This document shows positions 1,663 through 15,112 of a stretch of DNA of 64,000 nucleotides, piece after piece (the first letter of the stretch is position 1; each line of letters begins with the position of its first letter). Source of the stretch: Eledone cirrhosa. Lineage: Eukaryota. The notes beneath the pieces are model-generated. The model did not search any database and was not told where the DNA came from. It saw only the letters and a program-made list of their open reading frames with translations. A program made the translations under genes and the position numbers. The stretch spans positions 50,344,001 through 50,408,000 of the forward strand of contig OZ024751.1 in the NCBI GenBank assembly GCA_964016885.1, in the 5' to 3' direction.

Positions 1663-1952
1663 TAAAATAATAGTAATTATATATATATATATATATCTTC
1701 ACTATCGCTTCTTTCCCTTGTGGCTTTTTGATAGATAAAAGGCTATGGGCACGCTACGGATAGATATACTGTTTATAATGCGCCGAATATAATGCTGTTT
1801 ATAATGCGCCGAATGACGAAGGGGAACTGTCCATCTCTTGTTTGTGTCGCCTTACCTTCTAACACTATATATATAGTAATTATATATATATATATATATA
1901 TATATATATAGATATATATATATATAGATAGATAGATAGATAGATAGATATA

Positions 1953-3407
1953 TTTCTTTATTAGTCACAGGGGCACAAAAGAAGGGGACAAATACAAAGG
2001 GGGAAGTTTACATACAATAAAAACGTGTAAAATGTTATCACAGATGGAATTTAAAAGTTAGTCGATTTTCCCCAATAGAGGGAGACAGTTTATATGGGTA
2101 ACACATACCCCCGAAAAAAAATGTGCAACCCTCATCTCCAGGAGTACGAAGTGCTTGTACTCCTTTCCTCTCCTCCTCCTTTTCCTCAACCTACAGGCTG
2201 ATATAGAGAGAAGGCCCATTCACTCGGGCCATTCTCGCCACTTTCACCCACCTTTCATAAAACTTGCTGGGGTACAGCACCTCTCTCTCCATCCTGATTC
2301 TTCTTCCAAAGTGGTATTTGAAAAAAAGAATCAGTTGTTGGCCGGAGAGAAAGGTGTCTGACCTCAGCCCTTTCAACCATGTCCACCATACAACCTCTTT
2401 CGCCATAGCTATCACACAAAGGAAAACCGCCTCTCCTTCGTTTTTGAAGGAGGGTGGCGGTTTGATCATGACAATGGACTCGGTGGTCAACTGGATTGGT
2501 CCCACCCGCGACAATAGTCGTTTTACATAGCCCTACAGGTCAGTGACGCCCGGGCAGTGTATGAATGCGTGCGCGACGGTTTCTTCGTCTCGCACGCACC
2601 TCGGACAGATTTTTTTTGCAGGGTCCCTGCCCGGGCGCCCATGTCTGTAGAGCTTGTCTCGAACTGGTAGAGCTCCTCGGTAGCACTGCCAGGCCAGGGA
2701 CTTTTGGAAGTTGTCCATCGGTCCCGGGCGGAAGGTCCTACCGAACAGACTGGCCAGTTCATCTTCCTCTACGCCTAGAGTTTCACCGAGCGCGTCGTCG
2801 CACTTGCTGCGGACCAACCCTCTATAGAATGATGAAGTGGAGTCTCCACTGATCGCCGGGTCCGCCTGCCAGAGGGCTGTGAGCGCCTGAGCACATTCGA
2901 TGTGCCAGTCGCCCATTTTCCTCGGTCTCTGCTTGACCCAGGACTGCAGCTCGGTCAGCGAGACGAGTCGTGGGAAGGCTCGCCTCACGAACGGGGCCCA
3001 CACCGGTTGTCCGGTGAGAAATACGTAGAGATGCCGCAGCCTGAGCGCGTGTTTGCGCATCGTCAACCACGGCAACCCCAGCCCTCCGTTAGAAGGGTGT
3101 TGGAAGCAGATGGACCTTCTCACCAAAGGAGCCCGCCTCTTCCAAAGGAATTCGAAGAGCGCGCGTTCCATTTTGGCGAGCGTTTTGGCTGGACAAGGCA
3201 CGACGGTCAAGCGGTAGTAGATGGCGGACGCTATAAAAGTGTTCGCCACCTCCGCTCGACCTTTCAAGGATAGTTTGCACTCGGCCCACTTCTGGGTGAG
3301 TGCAAACACCTTGGCCGTCACTTCGTTCCAGTTCTTCTCCAGAAGGACTTGTCCCGGTTCAGCTTCGTTCCTGTGAAACTTTCGTATTCCTTCAGTAAGG
3401 TGCCGAT
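1953..3407 (-). mobile_element. Tx1-clade LINE copy A, 5'-truncated (ORF2 C-terminus plus 3' UTR), with an internal deletion of about 120 bp near 3341
   Basis: ORFs 2533-3474 and 2191-2514 match the ORF2 C-terminus of copies B and C (GGLGLP, CPRCVRDEETVAHAFIHC). Ends AATAAAGAAA then (TATC)n; (GATA)n on both sides. Confidence 0.9.
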
Positions 3408-3673
3408 AGATAGATAGATAGATAGATAGATAGATAGATAGATAGATAGATAGATAGATTTCTTTATTTACCATAAAGGCATAAAAAGAAGGGACAAATA
3501 CAAAGGGGGAGTTTACATAAAACCAAGTAAAAAGGGTATAAAATGAAAATAATCGAAAACAACCTCAAAAGGGAGGGGACGTGATGGGGTTTGCACACAC
3601 CCCCGAAAAAGTGTGCAATCCTTTGCCCGGGGAGCACATGGAGAAGGTGCTCCCCTCTCCTTCACTTCTTTAC

Positions 3674-13004: not shown

Positions 13005-14788
13005 TTACCTCTCTGCGTCCCGGGTATCGGGCTGCACAATTCCCATTTGGGTGGGGGATGGGTTGTTGGGTGGGGTGCTGGTTTGTGGAAGTGTAGGGGC
13101 ATCAGTGTGTTGTGTGGTTGGGGAGTTTGGAGTTGTGTGGGTTTTGGGGGAGGGGATGGGGTAGTTTTTTAGGAGGACGCGATTAATGGGCCCGACGCAG
13201 GGGGGACCCACGTCCTCTTTAAAGTTGTTTTTTAAAGTTTTATAGGTGTCCTGTGGGGCCTTAATCATTTTGAGGTGGGGGAAATCCCCTGCCTGGGTGA
13301 AGTTAGGCCCTTGGGTTTTTATTAGATTGTTGTTGTACACAATGTTTAACAGTTTTTTGTTTCTAGTGTTTATGTATGTGTATGCATGTTTTTGTTTTTG
13401 TGTGGTGTTTTTTTGTTTGCTGTTGTGAGCTCTTTTGTGTTGTTGTCAGTGTTATGTTTTGGGGAGGGGTTGTTTTCATTTGTGTGTCTGAGGTGTGTTT
13501 TCTTTTTTTTTCTTTTGATTGTGTGGAAGGCTCCTCCTCGTCTGACGACGAACTAGGGTCATCTTCCGCGTTGGAGGGGAGGGGTATATTTTCGGGTTGT
13601 GTTTGCGGTGCGGGTGTTTTGGAAATTGTTTTTGTTTTTTTAGTGGGGGGGGGGGACATTGTTTTGTTTTGGTTTGAGCTGTGGTGGTTGTTTTTGTAGT
13701 GGTAGTTGTGGTGATTGTGTTGGTTGTGCAGTTGTTGGTGGTGTAGGCAGGATTGGGGTTTTCTTATTAAGTTGGAGACAGACAGCCCTCAGGTGACCTC
13801 TGGTTCCGCAGATGTAACACGAGGGCCGCCTACCCTCAACGGTAATGTTGATGAAAGTTTGATCATCCAGTATGACGCGTTCAGGGATCTGGGCGATCCT
13901 TTCGGGCCTCATTTGAACTACAAGTTCGAGGCTCGTTCCACTGAACACGTCACCCGATGCCTTTCCCATGGACACCAGCGTGTCATCATCCAGGTTCAGG
14001 AAACCTGTCAAAACCCACCATATGTCCATAATCGGCAGGATGGTGTGGATTTTTATTTTTTGTGTTCTTCTACCCATGTACGTAGGGTAGAAGGTGTATG
14101 CGGTGGATGTGATTGGTTTGATGGACAGTTTCACTGCTGTGTCCCTGTCCTTCATGAGAATGGATAGACTCCCGTAAAGTCTATCCTTCTGAATGAAGGT
14201 GATGTCCTTCATGACGTCTTTTAAAACCAGCTCTATCTCACTCTGTGATGGTTGAGCTGGTTTTTTGCTTTTATTCGAGATTGTCCTAAACATGACAGTG
14301 TTTAGGAGTCTCTGGCTTTTTAGTTCCGGGGGGGAATGGATCGTGAATGAACCATTTTCCTCGTACACTATATATTTTTTGGCATCTGCCAGTAGCTCCT
14401 TCGCTTTGGTTATATCTACTGGCAGATAGTCGAGGGTTTTCCTTGCCGTCTCGGCGAAGGAGAAATTTTTTTTGTTTGTGTTGCTGTTGTAGTTGGTGGT
14501 GTTGTTGTTATCATTGTTGTTGTTATCATAGTTATTGGTCTTGTTGTTGTTGTTATTATTGGTGTTGTTTTCGTCCGTCGCATTGTTGTTGTTGTTGCTG
14601 TTGCTGGTGCCGCTGGTTCTTTGGGTTGTTGCCATGGCAACGTCAAGTTGTCGGTCAACAGGTGGAGAAAATCCTTCCTCTGGCTGACCTTTCTTTTTGA
14701 CCTCTGCTACTGTGACAGTGGCAGGGGAAAGCTGTAAGCTTATCTTCCCCTTTCCTACTTCGAATTTTGGTGAAGATGCTTCAGCCAT
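13005..14788 (-). pseudogene. Copy C ORF1 (gag-like, CYICGTRGHLRAVC knuckle, Asn-rich insert), frameshifted at the poly-G near 13650
   Basis: ORFs 13640-14797, 13363-13659 and 13005-13340; CX2CX4HX4C motif. Confidence 0.85.
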
Positions 14789-15009
14789 TTTTATCAAAAT
14801 AGGATTTTTCGAAATTTTTCAAAAAATAAAATTTTTACAACACTATTTCGCCTAAAGGCGTAGAATATTTTGAGAGACTGACCAGATCAAAATTTGACCT
14901 GGCAGTCTCTCTACAAAATGGTACAAAAATGAAAGTTTACAGTTCACAATTTCCAGATAAATTTAAACGAAACTTACCGAGCGAGCTCAGCACATGTGTC
15001 TATCCCAAA

Positions 15010-15112
15010 TAGATAGATAGATAGATAGATAGATAGATAGATAGATAGATAGATAGATAGATAGATAGATAGATAGATAGATAGATAGATAGATAGATAG
15101 ATAGATAGATAT
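15010..15112. repeat. (GATA)n microsatellite, about 25 units, flanking the 5' end of Tx1 copy C
   Basis: Seen directly. Confidence 0.97.

Follow-up and report, generated by a model that had tools for sequence, protein, structure and literature searches.

Three diverged L1/Tx1-type retrotransposons stacked in one GATA microsatellite of Eledone cirrhosa: a candidate case of GATA targeting

Tx1 families that insert into microsatellites are already known: Kibi occupies (TC)n, Koshi (TTC)n and crocodilian families (TTCC)n or (TTTC)n, and a Tx1 family is regarded as target-specific when the target is found in more than 20% of its flanks (PMC4494074, in the part of the text available). A review lists ACAY, AC, TC, TTC and TAA as targets and assigns TC to Kibi (accessible sections of PMC3812793), so that the sequence-only reading of the present DNA was right that Tx1 families target repeats but not in giving Kibi as TCC. 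Neither GATA nor TATC is named as a target in these portions of the two papers, and no non-LTR element specific for either was found among the literature matches listed; a Repbase or Dfam entry is still conceivable. Other target-specific Tx1 elements, i.e., Tx1L, Keno and Tx1-Mar/SINEU-3, use a transposon or U2 snRNA genes, unlike the GATA target proposed here, and SINEU-3 copies often stand in tandem around one duplication, akin to the stack described below (PMC4494074 and PMC1950540, both in part). The present locus adds to these kinds three L1/Tx1-type families stacked at a GATA target.

Repeat targeting by an APE-type element is likewise seen in the R1 clade (Waldo in ACAY, Mino in AC, SART1/TRAS and R1Bm), which further resembles the present case in the RNA-target pairing at priming that is proposed here, as it was for R1Bm and SART1Bm (available part of PMC7265360), and in the Drosophila R1 arrays, where one target duplication lies between units. 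However, R1 is a different clade (ORF2 of the elements described here is nearest to L1 ORF2p in the PDB), and its target is fixed with the endonuclease, whereas the sister families introduced below change their spacer with a near-identical protein. Stacking via double insertion with a preserved target has been described, the resulting arrays being able to grow by unequal exchange (10.1101/158386, in the part accessible). In O. vulgaris, 80 L1-Tx1 families, 13 of them recently active, have been reported; the available text and the searched supplement of that study contain no remarks on their targets (PMC13282606). This set probably includes the families described here as unnamed consensus sequences.

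Within the window, i.e., the whole 64,000-nt stretch of DNA analysed, three LINE copies (A, B and C) all lie on the minus strand, between and bounded by four GATA tracts (Table 1). This arrangement had been claimed from the letters alone and was confirmed by mapping of the tracts and copies; the tract positions given then also stood, apart from a B/C separator begun 6 nt early, at 9260. Like Kibi, Koshi and the crocodilian Tx1 families, these are APE-type, Tx1-like LINEs lodged in a microsatellite whose unit, on the strand of the element, is rich in pyrimidines; they differ in their invertebrate host, in the stacking of three diverged families and in the unit itself, their flanks being (TATC)n and not (TC)n, (TTC)n, (TTCC)n or (TTTC)n. 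At this single locus, the target is present in the flanks of all three copies (3/3).

Table 1. Copies, reading frames, GATA tracts and bordering repeats of the stack
Feature	Position	Strand	Description
(TA)n	1866..1926		single GA interruption, merging into the GATA run; outer half of host compound microsatellite
(GATA)6	1927..1950	+	6 units; 3' flank of copy A
Copy A	1951..3404	-	5'-truncated ORF2 end and 3' UTR ending AATAAAGAA
(GATA)13 GAT	3405..3459	+	13 units to 3456, then GAT to 3459; separates A from B
Copy B	3460..9265	-	full length; 5' UTR, ORF1, ORF2, 3' UTR ending AATAAAGAA
Copy B ORF1	about 9033-7100	-	spread over three frames
Copy B ORF2	7104-3674	-	APE endonuclease, RT, Cys motif; 3 frameshifts, 1 stop
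GATA run	9266..9284	+	19-nt perfect run; separates B from C; shortest spacer of the stack
Copy C	9285..15008	-	full length; 5' UTR, ORF1, ORF2, 3' UTR ending AATAAAAGAAAC
Copy C ORF1	starts 14788	-	one CCHC knuckle; three frames
Copy C ORF2	12980-9550	-	3 frameshifts, 2 stops
(GATA)25	15009..15111	+	25 units; 5' flank of copy C
TA/GA mix and AT-rich repeat	15112..15269	+	short TA/GA mix, then dispersed AT-rich host repeat

Copy A has lost about 112 nt internally, near 3340, and has a stop at 2533, and with the frameshifts and stops in the ORF2s of B and C, all three copies are dead; part of the 1-nt indels could be sequencing errors. When five natural frames of B and C were compared with the window by tblastn, no additional copy emerged; apart from the stack, only an unrelated RT at 17258-17809 was matched, and weakly so (26%). 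Predicted hairpins in the folded 3' ends are weak (-2.7 to -9.9 kcal/mol, without a shuffle comparison). No Rfam families were found in the window or in eight scanned of the 39 sister loci described below, and hence no RNA-gene target. Of note, the motif GTAAGT stands near the 5' end of C (14974-14979) and of B (9178-9183), on the minus strand, as well as in most sister units; its resemblance to a splice donor makes a 5' UTR intron possible.

The elements are non-LTR retrotransposons of the L1 group, with an APE endonuclease, a non-LTR RT and a C-terminal Cys motif. ORF2 matches RVT_1 in Pfam (E 6e-26), with Exo_endo_phos and zf-RVT marginally below the cut-off; against the PDB it matches L1 ORF2p at 1e-44 and R2 at 1e-21, and the endonuclease (EN) profile matches L1-EN structures at 1e-19 to 1e-21. 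A gag-like ORF1 with a CCHC knuckle is typical of the Tx1 clade. A single such knuckle is visible in the ORF1s of B and C (in C at a Pfam E of 0.17, below the cut-off) and was found in 5/5 sister ORF1s (E 1e-5 to 4e-3), while no mammalian L1 ORF1 families were reported in the ORF1s of B, C or the sister elements; ORF1 is therefore of the Tx1 kind, CCHC-bearing and gag-like, without L1 ORF1 domains.

Among named proteins, the best matches come from Argonauta hians (63% and 66% identity). In a quick tree (56 of 120 proteins kept), A, B and C form one clade (support 100) nested in a seven-row clade that includes Argonauta. In a FastTree phylogeny (219 of 237 proteins kept, with no named Tx1 family among them), the lineage joins 140 animal-type rows that stand apart from plant, fungal and algal rows. 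One animal-type row has fish, turtle, amphibian, lancelet and coral proteins as neighbours, one of them automatically named 'Transposon TX1', a label that occurs on fungal proteins too. An Atlas search for relatives returned generic L1/RT clusters only, and a search among longer proteins returned distant plant, fungal and algal elements. The earlier assignment to L1/Tx1-type elements thus holds at the level of an L1-like ORF2 and a CCHC ORF1, and membership of the Tx1 clade itself, with no named Tx1 family in the trees, is likely.

The three copies have diverged widely. B and C share 48% identity in ORF1 (over 213 aa) and about 51% DNA identity in their 5' regions, in agreement with the divergence of ORF1s and UTRs first noted by eye. 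ORF2 identity among the copies is 77-89%, their DNA divergence 15-20% and their ORF2 dS 0.49-0.74. The dN/dS ratio is 0.17 for B/C (724 codons), 0.21 for A/C (290) and 0.19 for A/B (289), the values involving A taking in about 60 misaligned columns beside its internal deletion. Differences between B and C fall mostly at third codon positions (192/727, compared with 75/728 and 54/727 at the others). This excess, together with the dN/dS of 0.17-0.21, identifies A, B and C as three separate lineages under purifying selection and not a decayed duplication, so that they are independent insertions, as originally proposed. Duplication of one copy was considered and is ruled out by the DNA divergence, the dN/dS of about 0.2 and the ORF1 identity. 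The head-to-tail order and the abundance of simple repeats in the window could also suggest a tandem duplication or an assembly artefact, but the same values make either scarcely credible.

Read along the element, the repeat is (TATC)n, and it adjoins the copies at 3/3 5' junctions and 3/3 3' junctions. AATAAA sits 3-8 nt ahead of the tract in 3/3 copies, and none ends in poly(A) (0/3). After a shared GAA at the 3' end, B continues with ATC, A with ATA and C with ACA, and TATC then follows in the same phase; at the other side, the 5' ends of both full-length copies come after TATC TAT. Copy A is truncated where B and C have ATCGG, which gives a 3-nt ATC microhomology with the tract, an overlap expected by chance at about 5% of positions in copy C.

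Outside the stack and its bordering repeats (1866-15125), the remaining 50,741 nt of the window contain no run of at least four GATA units in any phase or strand and one of three units (60046-60057), in line with the initial impression that long GATA tracts occur nowhere else; the same 50,741 nt hold 134 (TA)n tracts of at least eight units, none with an element. Beyond (GATA)25 there is no element 3' end. As this tract has no preceding element, and TATC stands at all three 5' junctions, TATC is a target and not only a tail. The site reads as a single compound host (TA)n(GATA)n microsatellite, split three times. Its B/C separator, 19 nt as a perfect run and 22 nt when counted from the shared register, falls in the size class of the target duplications of the sister clade (15-18 nt spacers).

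The AT-rich repeat bordering (GATA)25 recurs four times elsewhere in the window (53649, 21545, 21821 and 30543), and at each of these copies (TA)n or (TG)n adjoins at the same position. It also occurs in an inverted arrangement ending in (TA)n (21113-21155 with 21448-21490; 30295-30680; 53649-53976). With its inverted copies, this dispersed repeat is MITE- or foldback-like, and one copy adjoins the LINE stack.

These junctions bear on two further explanations. If TATC were a 3' tail made by the element, as in RTE, L2 and CR1, and coupled to a weak preference, the stack would be a rare local pile-up and most copies would lie elsewhere; microsatellite tails are indeed common in other LINE clades (PMC6007223, available part), and the two inner tracts could be the tails of B and C. 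Yet the repeat is not confined to the 3' end as in tail-bearing LINEs, but is present at 3/3 5' junctions, the outermost included, so that at this locus a tail-only reading fails. Even with inner tracts that originated as tails, the insertions of B and A must have gone into them, and under any insertion order at least two events had to land in a TATC tract. The tail explanation leaves these landings, and (GATA)25 upstream of C, without a cause, and a fixed tail is found at 0/61 ends of the sister families; we consider it quite unlikely.

Template jumping occurs in R2, and the whole stack might accordingly stem from one integration event, with the RT passing from A to B to C on RNAs that each end in UAUC units. 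The common orientation and similar decay of the copies would agree with this, but such an event demands three lineages expressed in one cell as well as two full-length passes, and TATC at the outer 5' end would still be required, making it a very improbable source of the stack.

A scan of bacterial and archaeal genomes confirmed 65 of 68 candidate stretches, at 39 loci in one record (CAXXMW01), whose elements are 42-44% identical to copy C. This GTDB record is titled as a bacterial MAG; since many of its contigs are filled with animal-type LINE arrays, its LINE contigs are probably contaminating animal DNA. The intact arrays occupy 16 contigs (loci L001-L039), with up to 10 ends on one 91-kb contig, and look like an undescribed retrotransposon satellite. 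In the FastTree phylogeny these elements are the sister clade of the group formed by the window copies and Argonauta (support 100), and their ORF1s are also homologous to those of the window copies.

The sister elements are intact and form head-to-tail arrays with units of 6.4-6.9 kb. Their ORF2 ends are followed by TGCC-hairpin-AATAAA in 59/60 cases, the remaining one running off its locus. The 61 distinct 3' ends on the 16 contigs, which are mostly near-identical array units of about nine spacer types from a single record and none of which has GATA, all show TGCC-hairpin-AATAAA and then directly a spacer of 15-18 nt. Poly(A) was found at 0/61 of them, TATC repeats at 0/61 and a microsatellite of any kind within 30 nt at 1/61.

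These spacers also stand at the edges of the arrays. An 18-nt spacer flanks L012, the only array complete from end to end (two units), on either side and also separates its units; in L032, the first unit has the spacer ahead of it. Array starts, sought by hand in four loci of which two contained one, have the spacer in 2/2 cases, and array ends begin with it in 4/4 seen; in L018, truncated copies also lie directly behind a spacer. Judging by its presence at these outer ends and truncations, the sequence behind AATAAA in the sister clade is target-like and family-specific, and not a lineage tail. The outer spacers of L012 mismatch at 2 of 18 positions and are thus not a clean duplication, and no empty site was seen for the sister arrays. 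Outer spacers (L012 928-945 and 13734-13751; L018 12411-12427) are 1-3 bases off the family's inner spacer, as if sites merely resembling the spacer had been chosen and the inner copies travelled with the element.

Two different outer 3' flanks are available in one family only (L017 and L018), and they match at 11 of 12 nt. Unequal exchange, starting from a single founding duplication, may account for the growth of the arrays. Two 5'-truncated tandem copies in L018 (6148-12410) share the same break point, each behind a local spacer, a pattern that suggests duplication after insertion. When five non-element sister flanks were compared with the window, matches were confined to simple-repeat-like stretches.

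The proteins and spacers of the sister clade can be set against each other. Seven sister families are 90-96% identical in EN and 91-99% in RT, yet their spacers are unrelated: mean likeness is 6.8 of 18 positions against 6.6 for shuffles, and 23% of 2000 shuffles score as high. Conversely, the endonuclease pieces of B and C are merely 69-78% identical and share TATC. The target does not follow endonuclease divergence. The 39 variable EN columns among the sister families include two short clusters (alignment columns 63-66 and 153-158) that could be DNA-reading loops, a point against the pairing reading given below.

That the endonuclease by itself recognises (GATA)n specifically, the current view of Tx1L, Kibi and Koshi, with RNA pairing incidental, was the part of the sequence-only reading that these comparisons do not favour, while its GATA target agrees with the junctions. 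The same junction evidence fits this explanation, and nicking by the Tx1L endonuclease in vitro is almost confined to its target (PMC1950540, in part). Between WT and SYLD, B, C and an Argonauta protein have similar loops, two residues short of the sister-clade loop, and three lineages have held one target across a dS of 0.5-0.7. Against it stand the divergence between the B and C endonucleases and the unrelated spacers of the sister families, 6/7 of which are identical in the loop ahead of SYLD; moreover, loop shape outweighs loop sequence for L1-EN (available part of PMC1950540). On balance, specificity residing in the endonuclease alone seems unlikely to us.

The comparison favours site choice helped by RNA-DNA pairing over the endonuclease alone, and the simplest link between spacer and target is the RNA. 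Transcripts are cleaved some 10-30 nt behind AAUAAA, so that one spacer's worth of flank would stay on the transcript and be able to pair. We thus arrived at a model in which an L1/Tx1-type lineage targets (TATC)n/(GATA)n tracts, a preference that would hold genome-wide, and in which three families entered one compound microsatellite in succession. The APE endonuclease would nick the GATA strand, all three 3' junctions fitting GAT^A. A transcript reading past AAUAAA into the flanking repeat would bear a few UAUC units at its 3' end, and base pairing between these and the nicked GATA strand would prime reverse transcription at that point, leaving no poly(A). Cleavage of the second strand would take place at a distance of about 18-22 nt, TAT^C being compatible with all three 5' junctions. 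These registers are compatible with the junctions, but A has ATA and C has ACA where the model predicts ATC. Each insertion would divide the tract and leave a duplicated stretch as a fresh target, and slippage would later lengthen some spacers. Pairing of RNA with DNA, and not the protein alone, would then set the site at least in part. For a single locus chosen after the fact, we put the probability of such pairing-assisted GATA targeting at roughly 55%.

A stronger form of this model, possible though doubtful, is that the Tx1-like clade picks its site mainly by an RNA guide, namely the 15-20 nt of prior target carried behind AAUAAA. If so, families could switch target with the protein unchanged, and by returning to their own spacer they would assemble long tandem arrays. 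The octopod branch would have taken TATC as its guide, with a long-lasting lock on GATA microsatellites, and the element would be an RNA-directed LINE open to natural reprogramming.

If GATA is a target, the microsatellite units known for specific Tx1 elements would increase by one and their hosts would come to include an invertebrate; some GATA marker loci of octopuses would then have common retrotransposon flanks. The sister clade offers a natural test of the shares of endonuclease and RNA-DNA pairing in LINE site choice, as its intact families, almost alike in protein but unrelated in spacer, are directly swappable. Should the RNA end set the site, the element would be a candidate for retargetable gene insertion.

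Elsewhere in the window, a broken fragment of another LINE, presumably RTE-like, lies at 17177-18462 on the plus strand (RVT_1, E 7.5e-14) and begins right after (AT)19. At 22907-24186 (minus strand), two frames (263 and 275 aa) overlap and resemble a decayed DNA-transposon protein, the 263-aa frame having no Pfam match at E 0.01, and a frame at 46541-47251 (minus strand) carries a THAP domain (E 1.2e-5). Also frequent is a short, SINE-like repeat scattered over the window (1514-1661, 15899-15991, 27576-27695, 35562-35673, 47648-47760, 50521-51252 and 53131-53363), with no Rfam match at the gathering score. Lastly, the window holds a 1.4-kb GTGGT/GTC array (25893-27324) and a 3.5-kb degenerate (TA)n array (37399-40898).
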